Shown one piece after another: positions 46,592 to 63,176 of a DNA stretch of 64,000 nucleotides; the first letter of the stretch is position 1, and every line of letters begins with the position of its first letter. The DNA is taken from contig CAVVOP010000019.1 in assembly GCA_963749915.1 (NCBI GenBank), forward strand, positions 64,001-128,000, in the 5' to 3' direction. The notes under the pieces were generated by a model. The model saw nothing but the letters and a program-made list of their open reading frames with translations, did not search any database and had not been told where the DNA came from. The DNA comes from an uncultured cyanobacterium. Lineage in GTDB: Bacteria; Cyanobacteriota; Cyanobacteriia; Cyanobacteriales; Cyanobacteriaceae. The position numbers and the translations under genes are program-made.

Positions 46592-46906
46592 CTAAGTTTT
46601 TTGATAAATAAAACGGGCATAGTTGAGGATTTCTTCTTGTTTGTTGGGAGCTAAGTTATGAATAATTGCGGTGATTTTATCGCTAGTAGGTAGCCATTGT
46701 TTAGTTGCTGATTTCCACACGACAATAAATTGTTTATCGGATAGGTTACATAGAGCAGTAGTTTCTCCTTCTTCATTGGTAAACTCTACCTCGAAATTAT
46801 GGTCATCGTGGCATTCCACTATTGCACCTTGACTACCTATAAATTGCTGATATTCTGCTAGATTGACAAGGAGTTCGACAATATCAAATAGTTCTGGTTT
46901 AATCAT
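46592..46906 (-). CDS. DUF4926 domain protein
   Basis: PELFDIVELL..GSQGAIVE..FEVEF; ATGA-coupled to the upstream gene. Confidence 0.8.
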   Translation of the reverse strand: MIKPELFDIVELLVNLAEYQQFIGSQGAIVECHDDHNFEVEFTNEEGETTALCNLSDKQFIVVWKSATKQWLPTSDKITAIIHNLAPNKQEEILNYARFIYQKT

Positions 46907-47253
46907 GATTTTCTCTTGATGTAAGCGGTGATTAGTCGGGCTTGTTTTGAGTTGGGAGGTATTAGCCAAGCAGTACGGACGTTTTCTCTTTGTTCAGGCT
47001 TGATTCCTTGAATGATTATATCTACTTGGTATCTTCTGCCATATTTATCTTCAAGGTTCGGGATTGCTTCTGTATCAAGGGCTTTGTCTTTGATTTGAGT
47101 TAACAAGGCTGGGTAGTTTTCTTGATTGTATCCCAGATGTTTTTGAAACATTATGGCTTTATCTTTACCTTTGGGGTTTTCAGAGTCGAGGACGTAATTA
47201 GTAAGTTTTCTCGTATCAATAATGATCTCATCGGCATATTCTCTTAATTTCAT
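46903..47253 (-). CDS. DUF6883-like protein
   Basis: RKLTNYVLD....GKDKA.MF...LGY, YGRRY, VRTAW and RLITAY. Confidence 0.75.
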   Translation of the reverse strand: MKLREYADEIIIDTRKLTNYVLDSENPKGKDKAIMFQKHLGYNQENYPALLTQIKDKALDTEAIPNLEDKYGRRYQVDIIIQGIKPEQRENVRTAWLIPPNSKQARLITAYIKRKS

Positions 47254-47256
47254 CTT

Positions 47257-48687
47257 TTAGTCTCTCACTCGCAATTTTCCACTCATTAGTTTAGGGAGTA
47301 AGGTATCACGGGTTTTTGTTAGGGTTTGAATTTGTTGATTATTTAGATGATATTTTTTAAATATTGGTAGAATTATTTTTCTAAAAGAGTCAATAATCAA
47401 AGAATTAGGAATGATAATGGGCATCTCCCGTAAAGATCCTAAAGTTATATAAGATTGTGTAGTTCCTGCGAGCCTTGTTCTAAAGTAAGATTTTCCATAA
47501 GTTGAATTTAAAAACAAATATAAAAATTCAGAATATTCTAGATTTTGAGATGTTTTAAACAAGCCAATATTTTTAATGGCAAAATCAATTTCCTCATCTA
47601 AGACAAAATATAAAATTCCAACTGTTCCAATCATCGATAGTAAGATATCATATCTATCCACTTTGCTCCTTTTATTAATATCGATATAATCAGATTCGGA
47701 AATCAAGTAAGCAGAATTAAAATCAATTCCTTCTTTTTTTAGATGTTTTGAGGTTATCAAATAAAAACCTTTTTCTGATTGTTTAGGAGAATCATGTGTT
47801 CCATCCCTAACATCAATAATCTTTTCTAAATTTCCCACTGGCCAACCTGCGGGAATTTCGCCTAGCTCAGACGGGAGCGAAGCGCTGCTGCAAGCAGTTC
47901 GCATTTCACCACCAGAGGATTTATAAGGTTTACCGTCTTCATTAGGAAACTCAAAATCTATAAACCAATGCTTAAATAATGTCTGGGCAATCGCTTCTAA
48001 GCTTTCATTCTGCCTTCTCAAATTGTCAATCTTCGCATCTAAACAAGATAATACATCGGCAATTTTCTTTTGTTCTTCTAAATCAGGTACTTGAAGCTTA
48101 ATCTGACTCAAAATAGATTGATTAATGAGAGGTTGACCTGAACCGCCTCTTAGCCTATCTAATTTATAGTTATTGAGAAAATAGTAAAGAAACACTGAAT
48201 CAGAAATACCTTCTATACTACTTCCAATAATTGCGTTATCAGTAACCCAGCATTCTTCTTTACTCTCTCCAATAAACCAATTCTCAACCTTTAAACCATT
48301 AAAATCTTCAAAATCACTAACATTATTGGTCACCAAAACCAAATCATTACAAAAAGCAATACCCGCAATTTGTCCATCGGCAAAAGCAGGAATTTTTCCC
48401 ATCTTCGATAACCTCGCCCTTTCCTCACCGTGCCACCGTGCCGCTCGTAAATCATAATCAAAAACAGGCATCTTTAAAGGTATCTGCTCAATATAATCCA
48501 GTAAAAATTTTCTTTTTGCCGACTCAGGAGGTAATCGCAAATAACCATAGAATAGTTTATGAATTACTATTGAATCCGTTGCAACTTCCCTCTGATAACG
48601 GTTCATTTTTTCTACCACAAATTGATTGGGTATTTTTTTATTGATTTCAGAAATAACATTGGTGTCTAAGAGATACTTAAAAGTCAA
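47257..48687 (-). CDS. hsdS: In-frame fusion of a VapC/PIN toxin and a 5'-truncated type I specificity subunit HsdS
   Basis: Residues 1-138 are PIN (YLLDTN, FADGQIA, LVTNN..DF, VENW). They are followed by GSGQP, EQKKIA..LDAKI, LFKHWF, GEIPAGW and RDTLLPKLMSG. Confidence 0.88.
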   Translation of the reverse strand: MTFKYLLDTNVISEINKKIPNQFVVEKMNRYQREVATDSIVIHKLFYGYLRLPPESAKRKFLLDYIEQIPLKMPVFDYDLRAARWHGEERARLSKMGKIPAFADGQIAGIAFCNDLVLVTNNVSDFEDFNGLKVENWFIGESKEECWVTDNAIIGSSIEGISDSVFLYYFLNNYKLDRLRGGSGQPLINQSILSQIKLQVPDLEEQKKIADVLSCLDAKIDNLRRQNESLEAIAQTLFKHWFIDFEFPNEDGKPYKSSGGEMRTACSSASLPSELGEIPAGWPVGNLEKIIDVRDGTHDSPKQSEKGFYLITSKHLKKEGIDFNSAYLISESDYIDINKRSKVDRYDILLSMIGTVGILYFVLDEEIDFAIKNIGLFKTSQNLEYSEFLYLFLNSTYGKSYFRTRLAGTTQSYITLGSLREMPIIIPNSLIIDSFRKIILPIFKKYHLNNQQIQTLTKTRDTLLPKLMSGKLRVRD

Positions 48688-48959
48688 AGCTTAACCTCCC
48701 TTCCCGGACTGCGATCTCTTAAATCAGCAAAATCTTCATCAGTAAATTCTATCCCTTCGCGTTCCATCCGTTCACGAAATCTCAGGGTCATTTCCCAAAA
48801 CGTTTCTTCCTTAAAGCTTTCTGCTTCTTGTGTAGTTCCCTTATCCCCATTACCAGAACCTCTTTTTTCCTCCCGTTTTTTGAGCAGAATTGCCAACAAA
48901 GAATCCTGTTCTTCTTCAGATAAACTCTCAAAAGACTTAATCATTTCCTGTAACTTCAT
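48684..48959 (-). CDS. Putative antitoxin for VapC
   Basis: Small acidic ORF ending DLRDRSPGREV, overlapping the PIN gene start. Confidence 0.7.
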   Translation of the reverse strand: MKLQEMIKSFESLSEEEQDSLLAILLKKREEKRGSGNGDKGTTQEAESFKEETFWEMTLRFRERMEREGIEFTDEDFADLRDRSPGREVKL

Positions 48960-49240
48960 TTATACACCTCATCATGACTACCAATATCAATCAATAAAAT
49001 CATTATTTCTAAAAATTCTCCTTCTTCTGAGAAATCAAAAATAATTCTACAATCATAAGCAACAGAACAAGACCAAAGACCAGCCAAATTACCACTTAGT
49101 TTATAGGATTTAAGAGAAGGAGTAAATGGATCATCAGCTAAAAGCCTAAGTACAGCAAAAATTTTGTTTTTTAACTGAGGATTTTTTTTGATAACTTTTT
49201 TATAAGAACGCTTAAACCCTTAACTCCAAACAACCTTCAT
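48956..49240 (-). pseudogene. RelE/YafQ-type toxin pseudogene
   Basis: Manual translation MKVVWS*GFKRSYKK..DPFTPSLKSYKLSG..WSCSVAYDCRIIF / LIDIGSHDEVY; nonsense at codon 7 plus a frameshift. Confidence 0.85.
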
Positions 49241-49484
49241 CTTCAGCCTCGCTCAAGTCAGCAATCAAATCATCCACTGTTCCTACTTTAGCAGTGCCAG
49301 AAGCGGTCAGCGTAGCTGCGCTGGCAATCGCTTCTTTTAATTCACGGGCATTAGCCAAGATTTCCGTCTCCCTTGTTTTCGCTCGATGTTGACGCAGAAT
49401 TTCTAACAAATCATCTTGTTCGTCTGGGGACAACTTCTCAAAAGACTTAATCATTTCTGCGATTGTCATTACTCCACCTCCCAA
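49212..49484 (-). CDS. Putative antitoxin for the RelE/YafQ toxin
   Basis: Small ORF directly upstream of the toxin; G.AK.GTVDDLIADL tail. Confidence 0.7.
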   Translation of the reverse strand: MGGGVMTIAEMIKSFEKLSPDEQDDLLEILRQHRAKTRETEILANARELKEAIASAATLTASGTAKVGTVDDLIADLSEAEDEGCLELRV

Positions 49485-49551
49485 GCAAAACTAACATTAT
49501 CCATCCTCTCGAATACCAAAAAAACACCATTACCGCAGATTTCCTCCAAAA

Positions 49552-49785
49552 TCAACCAGAAAAAGCAAAAACATCAACCAGAATTGATCTTTGAGGTGAT
49601 GGATTATTATTGAGCATTAAACGAATATTCTCTGCTGTTTCTGCGGTAAAGATTATTTCTCCACAACGAGAGCATACTTGTGCTGGGATATTTTCCACCA
49701 AAACTAACTTATCATTCAAATTAAAAGTTTGATTAACTAGAGTTTCCTGCCAATCATTAGCATTACAAACATGACAATTATCCAT
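49552..49785 (-). CDS. YgiT-type zinc finger protein
   Basis: CHVC...VLVENIPAQVCSRCGE. Confidence 0.88.
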   Translation of the reverse strand: MDNCHVCNANDWQETLVNQTFNLNDKLVLVENIPAQVCSRCGEIIFTAETAENIRLMLNNNPSPQRSILVDVFAFSG

Positions 49786-50099
49786 TATGTCCTCCTTTGT
49801 TTATACTTAATCCATTCTTCAGATGATGGTTCATATAAAGTAATAATAGTTAAAAATTCTCCTTCTTTTCTCGATACCTGCAAATGTAAAACCCGATTAT
49901 TAATTGTTAACCCTAATAGCAAACAACTAGGAGAATATTTATCATCTGGGTAATTTTCAATAATAATCGCATTTTTTCCCGTTTCTTTAATCTCCTCTAA
50001 ACTGATATTCCTCTCTACCAAACGCTGTAAACCATGACGGGTAAATTGAATTTTGCCCTTAGTTAGTTGTTGCCTAATTTGCTTAAGGGATTTCATCAA
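49785..50099 (-). CDS. DUF4258 domain protein
   Basis: TRHG..R..ERNI, IENYPDDKYSPSCLLLG and ITLYEP. Confidence 0.88.
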   Translation of the reverse strand: MMKSLKQIRQQLTKGKIQFTRHGLQRLVERNISLEEIKETGKNAIIIENYPDDKYSPSCLLLGLTINNRVLHLQVSRKEGEFLTIITLYEPSSEEWIKYKQRRT

Positions 50100-50823
50100 A
50101 AATCCCCCAAAGAAAAACCGACTTTCTCTAACTGTATTTTAATCTCTTTATCCAAAGCCAAACCTTCTCGCATTTGTTCTGCTAACTCTTTGGTTAAAAC
50201 TTCCATCGTCTCCTCAAAGGAAATACCATCATCCTCTTCATCAGGAATCCCTACATAACGCCCTGGAGTCAAGACAAAATTATGCTTCTCAATCTCCGCT
50301 AACGTTGCCGACTTACAAAAACCCTTAACATCCTTATAATTCCCCTCGCTCTCTGGGAGAGGGTTTAGGGGTGAGGGCTTCTTCTTCCACTCATGATAAG
50401 TATCGGCAATTTTGGCAATATTCTCATCACTAAAAGCACGATTACGACGATTGACCATATAACCTAACTCCGAAGCATCAATAAATAACACCTCACCCTT
50501 ACGAGATCGACTCTTATTCACGTTTTTATAGCGACTGAGGAACCATAAACAAGCAGGAATACCAGTGTTATAGAATAGCTGTGTCGGTAACATGACAATA
50601 CAATCCACCAAATCAGCTAAATCCTTATGAGCATCATTGAGAAAAGAACCTTCAGGATTCCACTTAATATTCGAGCCATCAATTCCCCTAATCGCCAAAT
50701 TCATCCGACATAACTTATAGGTGGTTTCGTTGCTCTCCTGCCCATAGATAGAAATATCATCCAACCGCCCTTGGTGAGCTTCAATAAACTTCTCACTCTG
50801 AACAAACATTCCCCCCGAACCGC
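50096..50823 (-). pseudogene. hsdM: Type I R-M methyltransferase HsdM, truncated and internally deleted
   Basis: CGSGGMF, YGQESN, LFYNTGIPACLWF and LTPGRYVG are present; the N-terminal half and the NPPF catalytic motif are absent. Confidence 0.88.
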
Positions 50824-51320
50824 AAAGGTTAATCTTACAGTTTCTCAGCCCCAACTGTCGAAAATATTATTTGCTCTGTTAGGTAACCTGCCGAATGTAG
50901 GTTCTAATTGTTTATTTGTGGGCATTTATCTTTTGACATAAAGTTTACTAAGAAGTCATTCAAATCTTCTATGTGGTTGTCAAAATCTATTATCGAGAAT
51001 CACTTTTGACCAAAATATCTGAGCAGGAAAACCAGTTATTAGAGGTTTAAGAATTTCTGTGACGATGATTTTAGAACTTTTAAGCTCAATCTATTTCATC
51101 TTAGAAATTACTCACATTCAATTGGTTAAACTAAGAACCCAATCATTAGGCTATTATTTGTGGGAATTTCTTTTTTACTGGTTAATATTTGCATTTATAT
51201 TTTATGGTCAAAAATATCTAAACCAAGACGAGGTGAACGTTTAGTTTATCATCATTTATTTTCTCTAAAACAAATGCTAGCATTTTTATCGAATGTAGTT
51301 AATCAAATTTATTAGGATTG

Positions 51321-52367
51321 TTATAAATCTATTATTCCATATGTATATAACATAATAACAACCAATCCTATAGAGATAATTAATAATATAACCACGATAA
51401 AATTTAAACAACCTAAATTTCCTTTTATACTTTTAATAACATCTTGTAGCTTCTTAGTTTTTACAGAAAACAGATCATCTATTTGAACTATTTTTTCATC
51501 ATGAATTTTAAGTGATTGACGTATATTAAATATATTCTCAGAATTTAAACTTTCATTATTCTTAATGAGTTCATAAATATCTTTTATGTGTTCACTAATT
51601 TTATTGGTAAAATAGATATTTAGTTTATTTATATCTTGATCAACTTGATATTTGATATCAATTAGTTCACTTGTTATTTCTGATAAATTTTGTTCCAATA
51701 AATTTTGTTTATCTTGGGTTTGTAAATTACTATTATAGTGTTCATTTAAAAGTTTTATTAAATCTTGAATATTTTTGGGTATTTTACCCTCTTTGTTAGT
51801 AAGTTTTTCTAATTCTTCCAATAATTGATTGGCGGGAGAAATCTTACTGCGAATATCACCTTTAGCTTTTAATTGCCAAGATTCTCCACCGGGTAAAATA
51901 TCAACTTTACATGGTTTTTCTATACTGAAATTATTACTAATTGGGCTTACATCTCCTTGAATAATGAATAAAGATTCTATCTGATTTTTTAAACGATTAA
52001 AATTAATTTTACGATCACCATTGAATACTAAATAATAAGATTTACCATTTTCATTTTCTATTAAAATAATCCAATAATAACCACTATTTGTATATTCTAA
52101 ATAAATATTTTCATTATTATCACCCCTATAAGTATCTGCCGTCACGGAAACAGGAGTCCCATATTCCGCTAATATTTGAGGGGCATAATTATAAATATTA
52201 ATTAACTCCTCTTCACTAATATTTATCGGCTTTGGTTGGGGGTTAGATTTTCCACCTGTAACGATAACTCTTTGAGTCGATATTTCTAGTTCTTTTAGTT
52301 TTTTATCTACTTCTTGGAATTTGTTATATATGAGTTCTAGATTTTGACTTGGGGTGTTTTCATTCAT
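51321..52367 (-). CDS. Tubulin-locus accessory protein A: repeated domain, coiled coil, C-terminal TM anchor
   Basis: N-terminal half clearly paralogous to 62106-63176; hydrophobic C-terminal helix. Confidence 0.75.
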   Translation of the reverse strand: MNENTPSQNLELIYNKFQEVDKKLKELEISTQRVIVTGGKSNPQPKPINISEEELINIYNYAPQILAEYGTPVSVTADTYRGDNNENIYLEYTNSGYYWIILIENENGKSYYLVFNGDRKINFNRLKNQIESLFIIQGDVSPISNNFSIEKPCKVDILPGGESWQLKAKGDIRSKISPANQLLEELEKLTNKEGKIPKNIQDLIKLLNEHYNSNLQTQDKQNLLEQNLSEITSELIDIKYQVDQDINKLNIYFTNKISEHIKDIYELIKNNESLNSENIFNIRQSLKIHDEKIVQIDDLFSVKTKKLQDVIKSIKGNLGCLNFIVVILLIISIGLVVIMLYTYGIIDL

Positions 52368-52427
52368 AGTTTTTATATGGAAATAGTCAATAATTAATAA
52401 TGAAAATTATAAAAATTACCAATTAAA

Positions 52428-53891
52428 TTAATTTACTAAATCTATTTCTCCAGATTGAACTAATGCCCATTTGTTTTTAGTATTTTGTTTAACGATGGCA
52501 GGTTTTATTATACTAATTTGATTTCCTTTCAATGTTTGAGATAAATTACCATTACAAATAAATAATTGTGACTTTTTAATTTGTTGTAGAGTTTGAGAAT
52601 TAAATGGAGTATGAGGATCTAAAAATAGATAAAAGTCTCCGTTATTACTATTACTTGCCACAATATAGTATTCTCCTTGACGGTTGTTATTTTCTAATTC
52701 TACTAAACCTTCCCATGTACCCGCTAAAACTTTATTAACAGTATCTTTTGTCATACTTACCCGAATAGCATTTTTTAATAAGCCTTGAGGATTTTCTCTA
52801 TATAAATTTATCAATCTCACATCTTCTGACATTGGGGGAGGCGGCGGTGGTGTTTCTTTATGAATGGTATTAGAATATTGTTGTTGCAAAGATGTGGCAT
52901 CTCTATCACTATCATTCACTGATGGAGGGTTATTTATTTGAAATTCTAATTGTCTGAATTGTTGCTGAACTATAGAGAATTGTGTTTGAGAAAAAGTATT
53001 TAACTCATTAACTTTATCTTGTAAGATTTTTATTTGCTGGTTAAGATATTGATCTTTTCCTTCAAATTCTTCCATGGCATTTTTTTGATGTTTTATTACT
53101 CTAAGTAATTCTCCATTTTTCTTTTTTAGATCCCTAATTAGTAAAGTATTAATAATTGATAATATGGTAACTACTAATCCCAAAACTGAACCAGTTATTA
53201 TAAGTATTAAGACTAGTTTATTCCCTTGATTCTTGTTGTCATTTATATCTACTAAGTTTTCGCTATTAACTGATTTATTTATTGTTTTTATATGGTCTTC
53301 TATTTGTTTGTTTTTTTCGGAGAAAAATGTTGCTAAATTATCATAGGTTTTGTCAGTAAAATTACCGCAATCATTATCATTTTTATTCTGAACAACTCCT
53401 AACGGTATTTGAATATTCTCGCAAATTTCCTTTTCATCTAATTTACCATCCTCGAATAATTTAATAATAGAAGCTATATTTGGGTCTTTTGTTTCTCCTT
53501 CAGTTGCATCGTTGGGTATTTTTATTAACATTAATAAAGATTCAATGTTATTATCATCAACAACTATAGCTTTTAAGCTGTTTGTTGCAGTTGTTAAATT
53601 CTCCAAATCTTTTGGGATTTTCGGGTCAATATTTTCAATAATCTTCGGTTCTGGTGATTTTTCACTTTCTTTTTTTAGTTTTATTAATAATTGTCCATTT
53701 TCTTTGATATTTTCAGCAAAAATTTGATACTTATCTTCAATTTCTTTATTTAATTTTTCAATTTGGTATTTTTTCATTATTTCTTGTTGCGATATATCAT
53801 TCTTCCCAAAAATTGATTCCAAGTTACATCCTGTTAAAAGGAAGGGAAATAAAAAACTTAATAAAATTAATTTAATGGCTTTATTGTTCAT
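52428..53891 (-). CDS. Tubulin-locus accessory protein B: lipoprotein signal, internal TM, coiled coil, poly-Pro, repeated domain
   Basis: LLTGC lipobox; TM LVLILIITGSVLGLVVTILSII; PPPPPP; C-terminal IKPAIV..WAL..G.I. Confidence 0.78.
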   Translation of the reverse strand: MNNKAIKLILLSFLFPFLLTGCNLESIFGKNDISQQEIMKKYQIEKLNKEIEDKYQIFAENIKENGQLLIKLKKESEKSPEPKIIENIDPKIPKDLENLTTATNSLKAIVVDDNNIESLLMLIKIPNDATEGETKDPNIASIIKLFEDGKLDEKEICENIQIPLGVVQNKNDNDCGNFTDKTYDNLATFFSEKNKQIEDHIKTINKSVNSENLVDINDNKNQGNKLVLILIITGSVLGLVVTILSIINTLLIRDLKKKNGELLRVIKHQKNAMEEFEGKDQYLNQQIKILQDKVNELNTFSQTQFSIVQQQFRQLEFQINNPPSVNDSDRDATSLQQQYSNTIHKETPPPPPPMSEDVRLINLYRENPQGLLKNAIRVSMTKDTVNKVLAGTWEGLVELENNNRQGEYYIVASNSNNGDFYLFLDPHTPFNSQTLQQIKKSQLFICNGNLSQTLKGNQISIIKPAIVKQNTKNKWALVQSGEIDLVN

Positions 53892-53907
53892 AATAACCTC
53901 TGAGTAA

Positions 53908-54813
53908 TTAATAATTAAAATTTAAAATACCTTTATCGGATAACCGCCATTGATTTTGATTAACTTCAAAAACTTTGGCCGGCTTAATTACTTGAAAATT
54001 TTTGGATAAATGTTCTTGATAACCTCGTAACTCAAAAATAGTCTTGACCGTTTTAAGATTAGTATTAATTTTTAAATTTAAATCTGGTAACAAATAATAG
54101 CCCCCAGTTTCTAACTTTACAATCCAATAATCACTTTGATTCGAGTCTTGAAAAATTATTTCATTAGCTTTGTTTAGGTAAATATCTTCTAAAGTTTTTT
54201 TAGTGGGGGTAACTTTATAAGCATAATTAGCTAAAAAATTCGGATTATTATAATATTGCTCAATTACATATTGTTCATAATGATCTAGTTCCTGGTAAGG
54301 GGTTATATGTGGAGAATTAGTATTTTCTGAATTAGGGTTATTCTCGGTAAATTTTGTGTCCCCTAAATTGATAGAGTTAAAAGTTTCCATAGATGTTGAT
54401 TGGGTTTGAATTGATAAATCCTTAAGAGATTCTCTGACAATTTTTTTTATTCGACTGTATAAATCTGCTAGAATTTCTTGTTTCAGATTGCTAGATTGAC
54501 TATCCTGATTGGATAAATCATCTACTTGCTTTTCAAGTTCAGAAAGACGAATTTTTAATTCTAATAACTCATTGACCAAATTCTGGGATTCTTCCATTTT
54601 TTTTCTCAACTCATTTCTTTCTTTTCTATAATTATTTGCCCTGTAACAGGCAATTCTTGCCCAATCTTCATTTTTTTTGAGGATTTGTGCCGATGAAATT
54701 TTTTGATTTCCTGAATATAAAGTTAAATCCCAATTACAATATGCACATTCCCCTTGATTTTTTACATATTCAACACCACAAATAGGACATTTTTTTTTGT
54801 TAGCTGAAAACAT
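53908..54813 (-). CDS. Tubulin-locus accessory protein C: Zn ribbon, coiled coil, repeated domain
   Basis: CPIC..CAYC; heptad segment; C-terminal IKPAKV..WRL..KGIL. Confidence 0.78.
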   Translation of the reverse strand: MFSANKKKCPICGVEYVKNQGECAYCNWDLTLYSGNQKISSAQILKKNEDWARIACYRANNYRKERNELRKKMEESQNLVNELLELKIRLSELEKQVDDLSNQDSQSSNLKQEILADLYSRIKKIVRESLKDLSIQTQSTSMETFNSINLGDTKFTENNPNSENTNSPHITPYQELDHYEQYVIEQYYNNPNFLANYAYKVTPTKKTLEDIYLNKANEIIFQDSNQSDYWIVKLETGGYYLLPDLNLKINTNLKTVKTIFELRGYQEHLSKNFQVIKPAKVFEVNQNQWRLSDKGILNFNY

Positions 54814-54916
54814 AATTTCATGGACTAATGTTAATAGTATTTACCCTAAAATGGAGGCTAATTTTGATCCTCCCAACCCCCCCATCACATCAATAAGGGG
54901 GCAATGGATAGGATGA

Positions 54917-57900
54917 TTAATCTTTATAAGAGTCTGCCCATCTTCTGCCTAGAACATGGAGTAAGGATTTTAAACCCATAATAAAGGGGGTTTTTTCCCT
55001 GATATTTTTGGCATCTCCTCTCACATCTAGTAATTCATTTTCCAGGTGATATTTGACCTCTCGCCACAATTCACTGTTTTTATCCTCTTGAGCCGAATCT
55101 TTTTCGTTTTTTTCCGCCGGTTTTTGGGGTTTATAATCTGATTTTGCTAAGGGTTTAATAGTTTCCAAATTTAAAGATTTGATCCCCCCATGAAACTCGT
55201 ATAAAAATCGCTCTAAATGATCGAGGTTAGGAATATCAAACTTGGTAATATTACCCTCTAAATGGAGGCGAGATTGCCAGTTATTTTTCTCCTGAAATTC
55301 CTCATCATCATCATGATATTCGACATAGTAATCCTCTCCGGCGATGGGTTGTTTTTCCTTGTTTTCAGTCATTCCCGTTAATTCCGTTTGACTGAGAACT
55401 AAACCACAGGCTACTTCATGTTTCGGACGAGTGCTAAGGCGTGTTTTTTCGTGAGTATCTTTGAACCCTGAGCCTTTACTTAACATCAGACTAAGTAGTT
55501 TATTAAACTCGGTATTTTGGTCAAATTTACCCGTAGGAGAAAGCCAATGTAAGAAGCGAGACGCATTACCGCCAATATAAACAGGGGTAATCTGATCCTT
55601 ACTATATTTGCCTTGTTTATGAAGTACTTGCAAAATTAGACCAACATAGTAATATAAACCAGCAACTCCGATGGCCGTGAGGGTGACTAAACGCTGAAAA
55701 TACTCATCCTCATTTTTGTAGATCCGTTTTTTATTTAACCATTCCTCTGCCTTATGACGCAAAGCCACATCAATATTGGTCATGATGGAATATTCGCTTA
55801 AACCTGTCCAATCATTGGGGGTAAATTCCTTCATCAACTTTTGGGCGTAACGGGGATTCATGGCGATAATCTCCGAAAAAATATTTCTTCCAGCTAATAA
55901 GACCGAACATTGATAAACGATTTTGCGGTTTTCCCAAATAGATATATCTGAAGTGCCGCCTCCCATGTCAATACAAGTACTGCGAATTAGAGGATGTTTT
56001 TCTTTATCGTTGAAATATTGAGCTAAGGCTACGCTTTCTGTACAAAAACGCTGAGTATCATCAATGGTAGGACAAGAATAGGTTATCCCTGTTTTCGGGC
56101 TTAATTCTTCGGCAATTTCTTCCCAGTTACGATGAAATGTGGTCACGTTGGTATTGGAAAAAGCACTGGGATAAGATATACACCATTCAATAGTATTCAT
56201 CCCGGCATGAACCGCTAAAGCCGAGATTTGTAAGGATAAATGACGGAGAAAAACCTTAGAATATCTAAGATTTGACCATTTCAGATCTAATTTTATCCAT
56301 TGTTTATTGGGATCAAATTCCGTGGGATCGGGGACAAAGATACGACCATCTAAAATGGGTTGTAATTCTCCCTCATCTTCACCGTTTTTCGTGGTAAGTA
56401 CTGTGCACAATGGTAAAGGATCCTCAGACGGCAGAAATTGGGCAGGGATAAAACTTTCAATTAAAGCAGGGAAACGAGTGGCGATAGGACTTTCAGTTAT
56501 ATTCAGTTGTAAATTTTTGTTGATATCCAGGGGAAAATCACCGCTATTGTCACCTTTAACATAAACGTTAGTAAAAGATGTACCAAAGTCAACCCCCACT
56601 CGCCATGTACCTCGTGAGTTAATTTCTGGAGGAGTTGACAGTAAAATTAAGCCAATGTCCCGATAGTAGCTATCTTTACACACCACATGGGTAGGCATTT
56701 CTTGAAGGGTGGAAAGTTGGTATGATCCTGTACCATCAGGGGCTTTGAAACTTCGGGCTTGTTGGTTAGGGAAGTAAACTTTAAAGGTCTCCTCTCCATA
56801 GTCACCATCATAGTAAAAAGTATAGTATTGTTGCCAATTTTTTGCTCGAAAGTTAGGCCAAACCGTTAACACAGGTAAATATTTGATGGCATTTTCTTCC
56901 TGGAGAATATACTCTTTTTGGAGGCGGTAACTTTGGAATTGATTTTGATTAGGGATACCTGATAGGGGAATGGTCAAGGTTATACGAATTCCCTGCCCAT
57001 TAATATTATTAAAAGGCTCTAATTGAATTTTACCGATCAGATCTTCGGGGGTAAAGTACCTTAATAAAATCGGATTGAGGGGGATTAGGGGAGTTACTTT
57101 TTCGCCGTTAAAGGTTATCGGTAGGGTTGTTTTTGGTAGTAAACCTCCGGGTAATGCGTCTTCGAGATCTAAAAATCCTAATTCTTCTAAAAATAATTCT
57201 TCGGAGGTAATCCAATTCACATCATCCCAAACTAATGTGCCATCTCGCAGATCTTTTACGTTTAAGGAGGCTAAAGTGCGATCTTTGTGTACCCAAATAT
57301 TTTGTTTGGGTTGTCCCCAATATTCAGCGATATTCTCATCGATGATAATCAGGGGTTTAGCGTTAGTTTTGATGGCACTGGGAATTACTCTAAGATTAGA
57401 GGGTTTAGGGGGAATTTTGATGGGTTGATTGAGTAAAATTAACGCTCCTCGGTTAATGGATTCACCGAAAAAGTTGGGATTATCACTAAGATTTAAAGGG
57501 GGTATTCCTTGATCATTGATTTGTAAATCCTTACGGAATTGACTGATTAACCCCATCATTTTATTGAGGGCGATCGCAGTGCCATTATAGGCGACGAGAT
57601 TATTTTGGATATTTTCTAACCAACGCCACAATAATTCCTTCGATTCTTGATTCAAATAAGGTTCAGGGCTTACTAACATCCCATCTTGCCACCACCGCAA
57701 CCCGTCCCATTTTCCTTCCTCCGAGGTACAAACAAGGGTACTCGGGCTTGTCATTCCCACTGTTTTACCATTCCACAGGAACACATAAACTTCTTCCCAA
57801 GGGTTTTTATTATCTCTGGTGTAAAGGGCGTTAACAGGTTCAGGCATTAGTTGATAAAGGGCATCTCCAAAGGGTTGGAATCGTTGTTGAGAGAGATCTA

Positions 57901-58207
57901 AAAACTGGACTTTTAAATCGAATCCTTCTACTTCCGCCAAGGCGATCGCGGCCATCATCCCTCGCCATTGTGCCACCATCGCCTTATGAATGGGGTGATT
58001 AGTGTCATAAAGTGCCATTTCCATGATCAGAGGACGTGCCCACATGGTAGGGACGGAACTGACACTTTTAATAACTCCTGGGGCTTGATAATCGAGGCTA
58101 TCGGCTACATCTCGAAAGGCATTATCCCCCCTGCCTTCCCATTGTCCGGGTTGCCCTCTAGTAATGTTGGTATCGTCTTTTAACTTCGATAACAGTAAAT
58201 CTGCCAT
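54917..58207 (-). CDS. Large protein with a C-terminal actin/Hsp70-fold ATPase domain
   Basis: Phosphate-1 VGVDFGTSFT, SYPSAF, connect-1 TESVA, phosphate-2 IDMGGGTSD, adenosine IGGNASR, connect-2 PKHEVACGL; ~530-aa unknown N-terminal half. Confidence 0.85.
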   Translation of the reverse strand: MADLLLSKLKDDTNITRGQPGQWEGRGDNAFRDVADSLDYQAPGVIKSVSSVPTMWARPLIMEMALYDTNHPIHKAMVAQWRGMMAAIALAEVEGFDLKVQFLDLSQQRFQPFGDALYQLMPEPVNALYTRDNKNPWEEVYVFLWNGKTVGMTSPSTLVCTSEEGKWDGLRWWQDGMLVSPEPYLNQESKELLWRWLENIQNNLVAYNGTAIALNKMMGLISQFRKDLQINDQGIPPLNLSDNPNFFGESINRGALILLNQPIKIPPKPSNLRVIPSAIKTNAKPLIIIDENIAEYWGQPKQNIWVHKDRTLASLNVKDLRDGTLVWDDVNWITSEELFLEELGFLDLEDALPGGLLPKTTLPITFNGEKVTPLIPLNPILLRYFTPEDLIGKIQLEPFNNINGQGIRITLTIPLSGIPNQNQFQSYRLQKEYILQEENAIKYLPVLTVWPNFRAKNWQQYYTFYYDGDYGEETFKVYFPNQQARSFKAPDGTGSYQLSTLQEMPTHVVCKDSYYRDIGLILLSTPPEINSRGTWRVGVDFGTSFTNVYVKGDNSGDFPLDINKNLQLNITESPIATRFPALIESFIPAQFLPSEDPLPLCTVLTTKNGEDEGELQPILDGRIFVPDPTEFDPNKQWIKLDLKWSNLRYSKVFLRHLSLQISALAVHAGMNTIEWCISYPSAFSNTNVTTFHRNWEEIAEELSPKTGITYSCPTIDDTQRFCTESVALAQYFNDKEKHPLIRSTCIDMGGGTSDISIWENRKIVYQCSVLLAGRNIFSEIIAMNPRYAQKLMKEFTPNDWTGLSEYSIMTNIDVALRHKAEEWLNKKRIYKNEDEYFQRLVTLTAIGVAGLYYYVGLILQVLHKQGKYSKDQITPVYIGGNASRFLHWLSPTGKFDQNTEFNKLLSLMLSKGSGFKDTHEKTRLSTRPKHEVACGLVLSQTELTGMTENKEKQPIAGEDYYVEYHDDDEEFQEKNNWQSRLHLEGNITKFDIPNLDHLERFLYEFHGGIKSLNLETIKPLAKSDYKPQKPAEKNEKDSAQEDKNSELWREVKYHLENELLDVRGDAKNIREKTPFIMGLKSLLHVLGRRWADSYKD

Positions 58208-58223
58208 TTTTCAAACCTCTTGA

Positions 58224-59723
58224 TTAAACTTTACAACAAACATAAATCGCTTTAGCCAATCCTGGGACTCCCTGATTTGGTTCGCCAAAATTACTGATAT
58301 CTAAATCACCGATGGCATTTTTGAGGGTCACTGCCGTATCTTGATCGACAATTTCCTTGGTACGGGAGTCATCCCATAATAAATCGCCGAACTTTTCACC
58401 TTTTAAACTACGAGGGTTAACAAAATACTCCCTTGCTTTAAATAAGCGTATGCGTTCGTTATCACAATAGTGAATATCCTTTAACCATCGCAAAAAATCC
58501 ACACACCAGTTATCAATACTTTTAATGGCTTCCTGTTGGTCAGAATCACTCAAATCGGGCAAATGTTTACGGGTTTTCATAAACAAGCTAATTCCCTGAA
58601 AGAATTTATCGAACCAAGCTAAACCGTTTAACTCCTTAATTCCTTGAACTTTAGCTGACTGTAACTGAGGTTGAAAATCCGCTAACCAAATAAAGGCAAA
58701 ACGGGCGGCATTGACCAACTTAATTTTTACCTCCTCAACTTGGGGTATATCATCCCATGTTAAAATCCCTGCCTGGGCACGACTCATGACATGGACACCT
58801 TTTTGGGGATGATCACAGAAAAAATGACGGGCGGCCAAACTGGCATAAAATTCCACAAAATGAGGGCGATTCACTTGAGTATCTTTCCCAACGCTAAACT
58901 CTCCCAATTTTTCCATACTCTGATTGCCGATTAAGTATTTGGTGTCAAATTGTTGGGCTTGTTCTCGGTAATACCTTAAGGCTGCCTCAGTATTCAGTAA
59001 AAACAGGTCTGAACTGGCGTAAACTTGCTCATTACCATTACCTTTGGGAAAATTAAAGTAAGGAAGGGCAAAAATACAACCGATTTTCACTCTATCCCTA
59101 ACGCCGTCTTTTTCTAATTTATTGGCAATCAACCGCCCAACAGTTGGCAAACCTGAAGCACCTGTTCCGCCGAAAATTGAGCCACACAGTAAAACTTTAG
59201 CATTACTGCCACTACTCGCATTGTTTTCGATTTCATTGATAAAACTTCGCCAAGGTTCTTCTTCTAGCCGTTCGAGATTTATTTGAGTCATAATACTCGA
59301 TCCAATGGCTGGTCTGCCTCGAAAACCAACTTCTAAAGAGACTTTTCGCTCATTCTCAGTATAGAGAACATCGAATAAATTAGCTAAGGATGGAGAAGTT
59401 TGTTTGAGGGTATCATAGGCAAAAAATGACCCCAGTTTGCGATCGGCATTATTTTTAGTAAAAGGTGACCAAACCCCATAAGATTCAATGTTAGTGGTCA
59501 TCCAAGGGCATTCTTGATGTTTTCCCTGCAATAACTGATAACATTTTTGATAGAGACTGAGGCTCGTTTGTGATCGCTGTAAATTACCGTTAGTTTCATC
59601 GGCATCAATAAATAAAATTCTTAACTTATTGGTAGGAATTAAACCCACGGAGGTCAATTGAATAATTGCCTCAACACATTTAGCACCTGTACCACCAATA
59701 CCCACAACATAAAAACTCATCAT
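58224..59723 (-). CDS. Divergent tubulin/FtsZ-superfamily GTPase
   Basis: VGIGGTGAK (T1), IDAD, GFRGRPAIG (T3-like), SIFGGTGASG (T4 signature) and LPYF. Confidence 0.88.
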   Translation of the reverse strand: MMSFYVVGIGGTGAKCVEAIIQLTSVGLIPTNKLRILFIDADETNGNLQRSQTSLSLYQKCYQLLQGKHQECPWMTTNIESYGVWSPFTKNNADRKLGSFFAYDTLKQTSPSLANLFDVLYTENERKVSLEVGFRGRPAIGSSIMTQINLERLEEEPWRSFINEIENNASSGSNAKVLLCGSIFGGTGASGLPTVGRLIANKLEKDGVRDRVKIGCIFALPYFNFPKGNGNEQVYASSDLFLLNTEAALRYYREQAQQFDTKYLIGNQSMEKLGEFSVGKDTQVNRPHFVEFYASLAARHFFCDHPQKGVHVMSRAQAGILTWDDIPQVEEVKIKLVNAARFAFIWLADFQPQLQSAKVQGIKELNGLAWFDKFFQGISLFMKTRKHLPDLSDSDQQEAIKSIDNWCVDFLRWLKDIHYCDNERIRLFKAREYFVNPRSLKGEKFGDLLWDDSRTKEIVDQDTAVTLKNAIGDLDISNFGEPNQGVPGLAKAIYVCCKV

Positions 59724-59846
59724 TTTTCCCCTATTTTATTTAGACATCTCCAAAAAATTCAACTCGAAATCAATTGTAGGATTGGGAATCATTAATTTTA
59801 TCCACTATTACCTATCTATTCCCCGACTTCTGAAAAAAGTCCATGG

Positions 59847-60335
59847 TTAATTTCTATTCATGAGGCCATTAACCATTATCGCCCCAGGTACGGTTTTCTT
59901 TTTCAATAGTCCTGGGGTACTGGTAACGGTGGGTAGCCAATAAAGTAAAAATAAAGAGTTGAACAAGAATAACCCCATCATGGAAATTAAAGTTTCTTGA
60001 ATTAACTCCCCATTCTGATCTTGATTATTAAAGTAAACCGTTGCACTGACGATGATTACCAGTAGTAATAAACCTATATACCAGAGTAGCTTAAAGGAAC
60101 TGGCATTACCATGTTGATTTTTTAGGAGTACAACATACCATAAAATAGTAAAGCTAAGGGAAAAAGCAAAAATAATCCAAGCCGCTAAGGTATATTGTTT
60201 AACCCAATCACTGAAAGGAATACTCCTAATTACCCCGAAAAATTTTTGCTCATAAAGTAACGGTTGTAACCACATCATAAGTATAAAACCCACTAAGGCA
60301 AAGATGATGATTCTAATAATTTCGCCGACTTTCAT
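59847..60335 (-). CDS. Four-TM membrane protein, first gene of the tubulin operon
   Basis: Four hydrophobic segments; co-oriented upstream of the tubulin-like gene. Confidence 0.72.
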   Translation of the reverse strand: MKVGEIIRIIIFALVGFILMMWLQPLLYEQKFFGVIRSIPFSDWVKQYTLAAWIIFAFSLSFTILWYVVLLKNQHGNASSFKLLWYIGLLLLVIIVSATVYFNNQDQNGELIQETLISMMGLFLFNSLFLLYWLPTVTSTPGLLKKKTVPGAIMVNGLMNRN

Positions 60336-60504
60336 TATTTTTAATGTCGATAATTAGGTTTAGTTTTGATACTAAAGTTGTTATACTGTAAAATATATAA
60401 AACTTCAATATCTATCTCAAATAAGAAACGCTATTTAATACTTATTCGACAACTTACGATATATTTACATTGTAAACGAACATATAGAAAACGATAGTTA
60501 ATTC

Positions 60505-62064
60505 ATGGGTAACGTTGGTAAAAATACCTTTAAATCCTTACTTTTTATTATTTTGTCCATATCTCTGTTGTCGAGTTGCCAAAAAACTCCCGAGGAAGAG
60601 TTAGCCTGTAATACAGATTCGAGACCAGCAAAAGTTAATATAGAAAATACCGATAGTAAATTAGATATATCCGTCAATGTGGATGGTAGTGATTCGATGG
60701 TGGGTTATGTAACTATTCCTAACAATAACTATAGTAAAGTCTTAGAATTAATAGCCAATGCCGTTATCAGTACCAATACGGTGAATGTAGAGTATAAGCG
60801 CATTGGAGATGATAAAACCCTCACCCGTAACGATTTCCGCAAAGACGCCACCTCTAAGGTTTTTTATGGTGGCAATGATAGCATTTATAAACCTGTTTCT
60901 AGTCCTATTCACTCTGCCATTACTCCCCCAGTGGCGGGAAAATATAAGTTAACGATTATTGTCACGGATTTAGAGGGAGATGATGGAGGAAAAATTGCCG
61001 AAATTTTAGCACAAAATTACTTAAATAATGATGAAAAAAATCGAGATTATACTGTCGGTATTTGGGGGGTAAAAAGTCAGTTTAACGGTACTATTTATGA
61101 TCCCAATACTGGCAGGGCTAAATTTAATTATAGTACCCAGGGAAAAAAAGCCGATGGTTTTCGTCCTTTCTATGTTTTATTTGTGGGTAAATATGATCAC
61201 ATCGCTAAATATTTTGATGAGTTTAAAAAACTAGATACTCAAATTCAAAATGATAGTCATATGTTTATTTTTCCTACTCAAAAAATGGTAGAAAATCCCA
61301 TTAATTTAGGTACTCTTGACGAGAGAAAAAATAATAGTAAATTACCACAAAATCAGCAATTAGAAAGAGTTTTTGCTCTACAGGATAATCATGTTATTGT
61401 TGACGTAAAAAATCCTCACAATCAACCTTACGAATTATTAAGTATAGTTAATGATAGCGATCCAAAACCGACTATTCATTATCAAGTTTCTTTTCCCCAA
61501 ATTAATAATATTAAAGAGGATAGTTATTCGTTATACATTGACGAAAACAACTTAAAAACTAAAACCAAAGTATTTACTTTTAACTCTAATAATCAAGTTA
61601 ATAAAGTAACGGAATCTACTCCCGAAGAATCAGAATCGGATACTGAGGAAAAAAATACTAAGAAAAAAGATCAACCTAAAAAAGTTGATAATGAATTAAA
61701 TAATGCCTATGAAAAAAAGTTCTTTAAACTCAATTCTAGTAATTCTTTACAACAGGGATTAGTAGTTAAAGATTTAAAGTTGGATAAGGAAAAAGAAACC
61801 TTACAATTTATCACCGATATTAATTTAAATAGTTTGCCAAATTCGGAAATTTATTTATTTGAAGTTGATTTAATTTTAACAGATTTAACAGGGTTAGACT
61901 GGTGGAATAGTTGGAGTACTAATAGTCAAAGTAATGATGGCTCAAAAACACAAAATTTGTCTATTTTTATGAATAAATTAAAGAGTTTAACATTGCAAAA
62001 TTTCAGCAATCAGGATGGGGATCCAGTCATTGGTACTTTTTGTTTTGCCCTTCAAAAAAATTAA
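60505..62064 (+). CDS. Lipoprotein with a vWA/MIDAS-like domain
   Basis: LSSC lipobox; VDGSDSMVGY (DxSxS); IIVTDLE; RPFYVLFVG. Confidence 0.72.
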   Translation: MGNVGKNTFKSLLFIILSISLLSSCQKTPEEELACNTDSRPAKVNIENTDSKLDISVNVDGSDSMVGYVTIPNNNYSKVLELIANAVISTNTVNVEYKRIGDDKTLTRNDFRKDATSKVFYGGNDSIYKPVSSPIHSAITPPVAGKYKLTIIVTDLEGDDGGKIAEILAQNYLNNDEKNRDYTVGIWGVKSQFNGTIYDPNTGRAKFNYSTQGKKADGFRPFYVLFVGKYDHIAKYFDEFKKLDTQIQNDSHMFIFPTQKMVENPINLGTLDERKNNSKLPQNQQLERVFALQDNHVIVDVKNPHNQPYELLSIVNDSDPKPTIHYQVSFPQINNIKEDSYSLYIDENNLKTKTKVFTFNSNNQVNKVTESTPEESESDTEEKNTKKKDQPKKVDNELNNAYEKKFFKLNSSNSLQQGLVVKDLKLDKEKETLQFITDINLNSLPNSEIYLFEVDLILTDLTGLDWWNSWSTNSQSNDGSKTQNLSIFMNKLKSLTLQNFSNQDGDPVIGTFCFALQKN

Positions 62065-62105
62065 ATAGATTTATGTAAATTTTATCGACGAAAAATTTAT
62101 AATCT

Positions 62106-63176
62106 ATGACTAATAATTATGATTTAGAAAAAATCTTCAGTTATGTACAAAAATTAGAGAAAAGAATTACTAAATTAGAATCAGAAAAAGCAATAATTGT
62201 TCATGGTCATTTAGCAAGTCAATCAGCAAAATCCCTGACAATTTCTTTGAATCAATTAATTAATGTTTATAACGATGTTTCTCATATTTTAGATGTTTAT
62301 GCTGTAACAGTTTCTTTATCCGCCGATAGTTATCGTCAACAAGTAAAAGATCAAGTTATATTAAATCAAGTAACAAGAGGAAATTATTGGGTTATTTTAT
62401 TGGAAAATGAAGAAGGAAAAAACTATTATTTATTACCCAATGCTAATATTAAACTCAGAATATACAGATTAAAAACTATCAGTAATTTATTTGCAATCAA
62501 AGGTGAAAATGATGGAAAACAAGAAGAATTTACTTTAATTAAACCTGCTAAATTAGAAATTTTATCCAGTGGTAATGAGTGGAGAATCAAGGAAAAAGGA
62601 GAGTTATTTTTAGGTAAGAAAAGCTCTACCCAAAGGTTAGTATCAGAGTTAGAAAAATTTACCGCACATGAAGACAAAATTCCCGCTAGTTTACAACAAT
62701 TGTTAAAAATTTTAACCAAAATAAATCAAGGTAATTCTCAGTTAGCCAAAGAGATTGAATTATTAGATAGTAGATTACAAAAATTAGAGCCTCAATACGT
62801 TAGGTTAATTAATTTATATTATAAGAATCCCCAAAAATTTGCTCAGTTAGAAGGAGGTAGTCAACGATTAAAAGTAACAAAACAGACGATTAAAGATTTT
62901 ATTCAAAATACCATGAATTCCGTTTATTTAGAAGTTAATGAAGCTGGAGAATATTTACTTAAAAAAGGAGAAAAAGATGAATATTTATTTCCAGATCCTC
63001 TCTTAATTTTTGATAAAATGACTTTATTATTTGCCCGTCAAGGAAAATTATTTATCATTGAAAATGAAATACCGATCGCGATTTTGGGCAAGGATATGAA
63101 AATCAAAAAACCTGCTAAGGTAAGAAAAAATGGTGATGTTTGGTTATTAATTGAATCGGGAGAAATAAGTTTATAA
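62106..63176 (+). CDS. Tubulin-locus accessory protein D: two copies of the repeated domain joined by a coiled coil
   Basis: Two IKPAK(L/V)..W..I..GE motifs; N half resembles protein A and C half resembles protein B. Confidence 0.78.
   Translation: MTNNYDLEKIFSYVQKLEKRITKLESEKAIIVHGHLASQSAKSLTISLNQLINVYNDVSHILDVYAVTVSLSADSYRQQVKDQVILNQVTRGNYWVILLENEEGKNYYLLPNANIKLRIYRLKTISNLFAIKGENDGKQEEFTLIKPAKLEILSSGNEWRIKEKGELFLGKKSSTQRLVSELEKFTAHEDKIPASLQQLLKILTKINQGNSQLAKEIELLDSRLQKLEPQYVRLINLYYKNPQKFAQLEGGSQRLKVTKQTIKDFIQNTMNSVYLEVNEAGEYLLKKGEKDEYLFPDPLLIFDKMTLLFARQGKLFIIENEIPIAILGKDMKIKKPAKVRKNGDVWLLIESGEISL

Follow-up and report, generated by a model that had tools for sequence, protein, structure and literature searches.

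A recurrent domain predicted to dock the Hsp70-fold ATPase of a bacterial tubulin operon

Introduction

What is the role of a small domain that recurs in differently anchored proteins around genes for a tubulin-like GTPase and an Hsp70-fold ATPase? The question is raised by a 64,000-nucleotide stretch from an uncultured cyanobacterium of the family Cyanobacteriaceae (GenBank assembly GCA_963749915.1, contig CAVVOP010000019.1, positions 64,001 to 128,000), referred to here as the window and numbered from its first letter. A sequence-only reading had proposed that five copies of an unrecognised domain form a common docking module for one NTPase, with a GrpE-like nucleotide-exchange factor as a more speculative idea. 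We find a real, unnamed domain family whose genes lie near-obligately beside the ATPase gene. The explanation that we favour, at a probability of roughly 55%, is that the domain is an autonomous alpha/beta docking module, with a C-terminal half resembling the beta-domain head of GrpE, which would bind the operon ATPase on its IB side and tether it to anchors or cargo. The domain would provide a first handle on the assembly of a tubulin-plus-Hsp70 machine, and gives a little-studied operon a specific interface that is testable with two soluble proteins.

A repeated domain in four carrier proteins

The domain is ~125 amino acids (aa) long, and its copies and carriers in the window are as follows (TM, transmembrane; pLDDT, predicted local distance difference test).

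51321-52367, minus strand: protein A, 348 aa; short coil, domain, long coiled coil and C-terminal TM anchor (aa ~323-341)
51843-52220, minus strand: domain copy A, in protein A at aa 50-175; conserved N-terminal subfamily
52428-53891, minus strand: protein B, 487 aa; lipobox Cys22, exported region, TM segment (~aa 226-250), coiled coil, Pro-rich linker and C-terminal domain
52431-52829, minus strand: domain copy B, C-terminal in protein B; predicted ATPase binder (0.79, best control 0.00)
53908-54813, minus strand: protein C, 301 aa; CxxC..CxxC Zn ribbon, coiled coil, linker and C-terminal domain
53911-54282, minus strand: domain copy C, C-terminal in protein C; AlphaFold2 model with pLDDT 92.5
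53911-54105, minus strand: copy C, C-terminal half; closest in structure to GrpE beta-domains (Z 4.2, 3.9, 3.6, 2.5)
62106-63176, plus strand: protein D, 356 aa, soluble; domain, coiled coil, domain
62241-62615, plus strand: domain copy D1, in protein D; N-terminal subfamily, 41% identical to A
62790-63173, plus strand: domain copy D2, in protein D; clusters with B and C and shares 38% identity with B

All ten pairs of copies could be aligned, at 22–41% identity and with z scores of 5.3–37.8 against 500 shuffles; nine pairs exceeded every shuffle, the exception being D1/D2. A hidden Markov model (HMM) built from the five copies recovered exactly these five, and no sixth, from the 4.69-Mb genome of origin. 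The claim of five copies in four proteins is thus confirmed, the originally proposed limits hold to within about 12 bases, and the proposed consensus is essentially right. A repeat at the DNA level was rejected, as a single 71-bp match of 77% identity links A and D1; the repetition is one of protein sequence.

The family extends well beyond the window, with 799 representatives at E 0.001 when the five-copy profile was searched against 1.84 billion proteins. The description of the domain as unrecognised also holds. Searches of whole carrier proteins against Pfam, NCBIfam and PADLOC returned at most weak coiled-coil, Zn-finger or sub-threshold rows, while a Pfam search of 106 domain copies returned 19 families with one member each and no shared family. 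The best sequence match of the domain in the Protein Data Bank (PDB) had E 0.19. ESM Atlas returned unnamed clusters, together with a single Usg row at 0.85 that we treated as noise. No match to copy C was found in phages by tblastn, nor any at E 0.001 when the domain was compared to viral models with Foldseek. A look-up of RNA data listed no holder of the sequence, a negative that has no bearing on expression. Our literature search, in which coverage of subscription papers was largely missing, found no paper on the domain or the operon. Among named records, the closest relatives come from Cyanobacterium and Geminocystis species, and the island is also carried on plasmids, including those of cultured strains.

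Hydrophobic residues, Gly or Pro occupy the conserved positions of the domain (Y10, L64, P66, F83, P101, A102, W112 and G118, numbered as in copy C). These positions are structural in character and therefore argue against an enzymatic role, and no invariant catalytic residues were found across the 106 copies. A catalytic or toxin-like effector, such as a RelE- or barnase-type RNase, might still be suspected from the whole-domain structural search, which is headed by RelE/HigB-type toxins (55 residues aligned, with Z reaching 3.6), and from the toxin–antitoxin genes nearby. However, these matches are partial and of low Z, the same 106 copies lack a conserved His, Arg or Glu set, and a genome can hold up to eight domain matches, many of them on membrane anchors; we consider such an effector very improbable.

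The anchors of the four carriers are as first described: a tail TM segment in A, a lipobox Cys22 plus an internal TM segment in B, a CxxC..CxxC ribbon in C, and two copies in the soluble protein D. The accompanying statement that every copy adjoins a coiled coil stands for A and D, where heptad windows lie close to the domain (10–37 and 221–313 in A; 196–223 in D), but not for B and C, in which the coil (266–300 and 69–110, respectively) lies 55–70 residues away across a Pro- or Ser/Asn-rich linker. Because of the positions of the TM segments and their adjacent basic residues, all five heads should be cytoplasmic; the absence of a signal peptide from both the ATPase and the tubulin suggests that these should be cytoplasmic too.

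Two subfamilies are evident in a tree of 246 copies. One clade, with support of 0.994, places A and D1 among 38 copies, most of them N-terminal heads, that come from 33 loci; proteins A and D are themselves paralogues, sharing 36% identity across the first ~250 aa. Copies B, C and D2 cluster with those of their own lineage (20 copies, support 0.884), and copies are more similar within a locus than otherwise (38% versus 26% identity). In close relatives, orthologues of A lie far from the island (L036:6219-7139 and L037:6478-7521, where L and, below, G numbers denote loci and genomes), so the proximity of A to B seen in the window is variable.

Linkage to the ATPase and tubulin genes

The genes between the two sets of carriers encode the following.

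54917-58207, minus strand: Hsp70-fold ATPase, 1096 aa; actin/Hsp70-fold ATPase domain at aa ~535-940
56426-56494, minus strand: predicted core of the docking site on the ATPase, aa 572-594; putative subdomain IB equivalent
58224-59723, minus strand: tubulin-like GTPase, 499 aa; Pfam Tubulin_2 at E 1.7e-7, invariant GSxFGGTGAxG
59847-60335, minus strand: small multi-pass membrane protein, conserved, 162 aa
60505-62064, plus strand: lipoprotein; invariant Cys25, vWA-like DxSxS motif at D60-S64

The ATPase carries the expected nucleotide-binding motifs (phosphate 1 at D540, E724, phosphate 2 at D747–G751, G879–N881 and K929–G935), and its phosphate 1, connect 1, phosphate 2, adenosine and connect 2 motifs are invariant or near-invariant among 25–60 relatives. 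It aligns with the DnaK proteins of its own genome (E 5.6e-6), which also encodes an ordinary GrpE alongside DnaK, and its profile weakly matches actin, MreB, FtsA and Hsp70 chains. Unlike DnaK, the 1096-aa protein has no recognised substrate-binding domain and carries ~530 additional N-terminal residues. The likeness of the lipoprotein to vWA domains is weak (hhalign probability 23%, E 9e-4; controls under 0.2%).

In this setting the proposed linkage of the domain to tubulin- and actin-like genes is upheld. The domain gene is the next gene after a full ATPase in 72 of 74 loci, counting those in which the ATPase is complete and 1.5 kb of downstream sequence is in view (seven further loci lacked room). 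When loci were instead selected by tubulin alone, the domain gene directly followed the ATPase in 48/50, or in 39/41 once near-duplicates were removed. Across 401 genomes of the phylum, the domain occurs in 32 and the tubulin in 33 (about 8%), with 29 holding both; a wider profile adds the domain in two of the four tubulin-only genomes, giving 31 of 36 with both. The remaining five comprise two decayed islands, one in G059 (ATPase split by a transposase-like open reading frame (ORF), domain not found) and one in G180 (an ATPase fragment, tubulin not found), a 4-kb contig in G094, and an orphan B-type gene in each of G174 and G334. No p-value is attached to these counts, as related genomes are not independent; the family and its linkage are nonetheless established by computation. 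In G230, of the same genus as the window, none of the island parts was found in these profile searches.

B-type genes also occur on chromosomes away from the island (L024:8118-9704, L025:9054-10664 and L027:8634-10256), and in relatives of G174 and G334 the island is retained on a different replicon or contig.

In six loci, among the most divergent metagenomic ones, one domain copy with the B layout lies beside the ATPase and is followed by unrelated genes. This single B-layout copy suggests that the core operon probably consists of five genes, the last of which was expanded in the lineage of the window. The same gene order occurs in the Bacteroidota, in Prevotella NC_022111 (L074:10002-18499), where the ATPase is followed by a 186-aa protein with a coil and a small C-terminal domain and by a Zn-ribbon–TM protein; together with L001, this locus accounts for the exceptions to the rule that a domain gene comes next. 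No link of the 186-aa protein to the present family or to GrpE could be established (hhalign probability ~1% or less, with a shallow alignment of >80% identical sequences), and we regard it as a positional analogue. The correlation between domain and ATPase identity (rho 0.75) was not used as evidence of co-evolution, since kin share both identities.

Additional genes lie within the operon at some loci. A gene of ~1220–1260 aa with no NCBIfam match at E 1e-20 lies between the lipoprotein and small membrane protein genes (L092:5781-9464; also in L093, L094 and L126), and an iSTAND + AAA + vWA-CoxE ternary conflict system is inserted between the tubulin and ATPase genes in L014 (4910-8879), whose ATPase is lengthened to 1353 aa, and likewise in L100.

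The operon shares features with the FtsZl1 (Tubulin_2)–vWA operons in the available text of Makarova and Koonin (2010; PMC2875224), in that both place a Tubulin_2-type GTPase next to membrane proteins and a gene of vWA-like type. In that account, however, cyanobacterial FtsZl1 proteins have 1090–1101 aa, as opposed to 499 aa here and about 500 aa in relatives, and their neighbours are vWA and, in 2/3 loci, B7 plus OmpA/MotB-type genes; the tubulin of the present operon instead precedes a separate Hsp70-fold ATPase and the domain. By its length the present tubulin does not conform to FtsZl1, a ~1000-aa FtsZ-like protein with a coiled coil and a helical C-terminal domain.

Fold of the domain and its likeness to GrpE

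The AlphaFold2 model of copy C is a confident alpha/beta fold. A structural search with the whole domain gave no row at Z ≥ 5, which does not by itself show a new fold; three GrpE chains (Z 2.4–2.7) appeared among 47 rows, beneath the partial RelE-type matches. The C-terminal 65 residues also fold with confidence when modelled alone (pLDDT 89), and among 48,161 chains only six reach Z 2 against this half, the top four being GrpE beta-domains (9bls_B, Z 4.2; 1dkg_B, 3.9; 3a6m_B, 3.6; 4ani_A, 2.5). The alignments cover 50–53 of the 65 residues at a root-mean-square deviation of 3.2–3.6, for what is a predicted model, and the next rows are G5-type repeats (Z 2.0–2.1). The match is selective and spans the beta-domain end to end but is weak in absolute terms, making a GrpE-like C-terminal half plausible but weakly supported; common ancestry with the GrpE head appears slightly better than even.

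Several differences from GrpE (PDB 1dkg, 9bls, 3a6m and 4ani) accompany this likeness. The domain lacks significant sequence similarity to GrpE, and none of the 106 copies matches the GrpE family PF01025. It has an extra ~60-residue N-terminal alpha/beta half, which contributes about half of the predicted interface with the ATPase, and in a heptad scan of B and C its head appears to sit on a flexible tether rather than on a stalk and four-helix bundle, although coiled coils do occur in the carriers. It is also present in several copies and on several anchors per cell.

Predicted complex with the ATPase

Copy B was modelled with ATPase residues 300–1096 using row-matched alignments of 60 loci, scoring 0.79 versus 0.00 for the best of three controls. 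The mark used for this score is reached by 116/157 solved pairs and by 2/215 mismatched pairs, counts that are only roughly valid for our own alignments. At least 92% of contacts are shared between runs, and partner pLDDT is at least 85. Docking of copy B on the operon's Hsp70-fold ATPase is therefore well supported computationally.

The predicted contacts on the ATPase comprise residues 572–594 and 625–630, a patch of the preceding domain (348–494), and H818. Alignment to DnaK, mapped via motif anchors, would place 572–594 and 625–630 in the stretch equivalent to subdomain IB and 818 on a IIB-equivalent helix, such that one of the 32 contact residues falls in the IIB equivalent. On the domain, contacts involve 25–38 and 50–53 of the N-terminal half and 75–86 and 97–99 of the GrpE-like half, where residues 76–78 resemble the FDP loop of GrpE by eye. 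GrpE itself contacts DnaK with its beta-domain at IB residues 44–60 in Mycobacterium tuberculosis, with further contacts that hold IIB, according to the accessible portion of PMC10803776. The docking idea of the sequence-only reading stands in part: linkage, a fusion of the domain to a pseudoATPase and the predicted copy B complex are in its favour, but A and D1 belong to a subfamily of their own, whose predicted binding face differs. These two copies miss three residues of the contact helix and may therefore bind differently.

A further possibility is that the domain is a working GrpE-type exchange factor, which would open the ATPase cleft, free ADP and activate the ATPase at the site of each carrier. 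The GrpE-head-like fold and a predicted site at the cleft mouth, with H818 as the one contact on the IIB-equivalent helix, would be consistent with this role, as would the Hsp70-type motifs of the ATPase (including a SYPSAF/VPAYF match) and the HSP70 plus GrpE pairing reported in related conflict systems in the available text of PMC7159879. However, all Hsp70 exchange factors act on subdomain IIB in the part of a review available to us (PMC4753570), where the present model has just one of its 32 ATPase contact residues. The terminal hairpin (B domain 100–133) has no listed contact, and the heptad scan places neither a stalk nor a four-helix bundle directly before the head of B or C. The earlier exchange-factor guess thus gains some support from the modelled fold of the C-terminal half and the predicted, putatively IB-equivalent site, but not from sequence similarity, stalk or, beyond one residue, IIB contact, and we consider a working exchange factor rather unlikely. 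Also doubtful is the broader notion of a second bacterial branch of GrpE-related cofactors, in which heads freed of the stalk, extended and multiplied onto membrane anchors, sensors and decoy ATPases would switch on the ATPase, as partner of the tubulin-like GTPase, by exchange only where a carrier is engaged. If true, this would be a spatially addressed exchange-factor system that drives an envelope-linked defence or remodelling machine in several bacterial lineages. GrpE is the single known type of bacterial Hsp70 exchange factor in the accessible text of the same review (PMC4753570); this picture would become broader with a GrpE-like head that is multi-copy, membrane-tethered and dedicated to an Hsp70-fold ATPase that is not a chaperone.

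Inactive ATPase copies

Five loci encode ATPase paralogues of ~730–750 residues that are truncated (starting from about residue 325) and have lost the phosphate-1, connect-1 and phosphate-2 residues.

L003:17461-19686, L005:4449-7379, L007:14943-17141, L039:8513-10714, L101:930-3182: inactive ATPase paralogues

In L005, the motif-dead copy is fused behind a copy of the domain. The predicted docking residues are kept at 29/32 and 23/31 positions in two cognate pairs, compared to an overall background of about 60%, and at 19/32 and 15/31 in the other two, so that the evidence from inactive copies on the docking site is mixed. Such copies could possibly act as decoys or scaffolds.

Fusions and comparison with conflict systems

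Among 60 longer matches drawn from the best 150, the domain is fused to WD40 in 14, and to an FGE-sulfatase, a trypsin-PDZ and a peptidoglycan-binding domain in one each; among 36 proteins from the loci, one carries FGE-sulfatase and one TM2. Genes for a dynamin-family protein (L135:11750-14410) and an FGE-sulfatase protein (L138:17580-18593) lie directly 3′ of domain genes, each at a single locus.

These fusions bring to mind the effector-associated domains (EADs) of ternary conflict systems, and the domain might be a homotypic EAD-like adaptor, or might bind the tubulin or the N-terminus of the ATPase, with the predicted ATPase interface being incidental. Like EAD1-10, it is small, non-enzymatic, terminal and effector-fused (WD40, FGE-sulfatase, trypsin-PDZ), with locus-specific similarity, and the iSTAND-AAA-vWA system nested in L014 adds to the resemblance. 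Pfam includes models of the EADs. The domain matches no EAD model, however, with 0/106 copies hitting a Pfam EAD family at E up to 0.05. In addition, the single copy beside the ATPase in the six divergent loci is not needed by a two-partner homotypic scheme, no copy is fused to an active ATPase or tubulin in the loci examined, and the copy B complex favours the ATPase as partner. We judge an EAD-like adaptor unlikely. The pattern of small adaptors is shared with the GTPase-centric conflict systems in the available text of Kaur et al. (2020; PMC7159879), which also have tubulin, vWA and HSP70-fold parts, inactive enzyme copies, a patchy spread, and small adaptors fused to FGS, WD40 or trypsin domains. 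The double GTPase or GAP1 gene of those systems was not recognised in the present island, and in the same text their tubulin and HSP70/GrpE themes are non-overlapping and found in Firmicutes and Actinobacteria.

A tethered ATPase machine as the favoured explanation

Returning to the docking module, the domain would engage the ATPase via lobe IB, beside the nucleotide cleft and on its IB side. Protein B would then connect an exported domain through the inner membrane to the ATPase, protein A would be a second membrane tether, and the two-headed protein D could bridge two ATPases. Protein C, or WD40 and FGE fusions elsewhere, may bring sensors or cargo to the ATPase, with trypsin-PDZ and inactive ATPase copies as further carriers in other genomes. 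The tubulin-like GTPase would probably be tethered along with the ATPase. Binding by copies other than B is presumed by analogy with that copy, and docking may in turn tune the nucleotide state of the ATPase.

A number of observations weigh against this explanation. In terms of linkage, searches of G174 and G334 found a B-type gene but no ATPase or tubulin, and no domain gene follows the ATPase in locus L001. The GrpE Z scores of 2.5–4.2 are below the trust level of the structural tool, a Foldseek comparison to the PDB, one of the checks first proposed, gave nothing at E 0.001 for the whole domain or its C-terminal half, and hhalign against a profile of 27 GrpE sequences aligned 10–11 columns at a non-significant probability of 3–12%. 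The modelled complex is a single one, comprising copy B and an ATPase minus residues 1–299 and without tubulin, and conservation at its interface exceeds that of the remaining polar positions by only a small margin (p 0.04). Its pass can also reflect likeness to solved GrpE–DnaK complexes, though the sequences are far from both. Finally, the lower retention of docking residues in two of the cognate inactive pairs (19/32 and 15/31) points away from a preserved site.

As to the purpose of the machine, we lean towards defence or conflict, given that the island is patchily distributed, occurs on plasmids and can be decayed, and that it comes with decoy-like ATPases, effector-type fusions and a nested iSTAND-AAA-vWA system; envelope remodelling is possible.

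Surroundings of the island

Beyond protein A, the window contains type I restriction remnants, toxin–antitoxin-type genes and transposase pieces. Just downstream of A, the segment at 46592-50854 holds an HsdM fragment and an ORF that joins a PIN-like domain to part of HsdS, and these type I restriction-modification remnants are interleaved with DUF4258, DUF4926 and DUF6883 genes.

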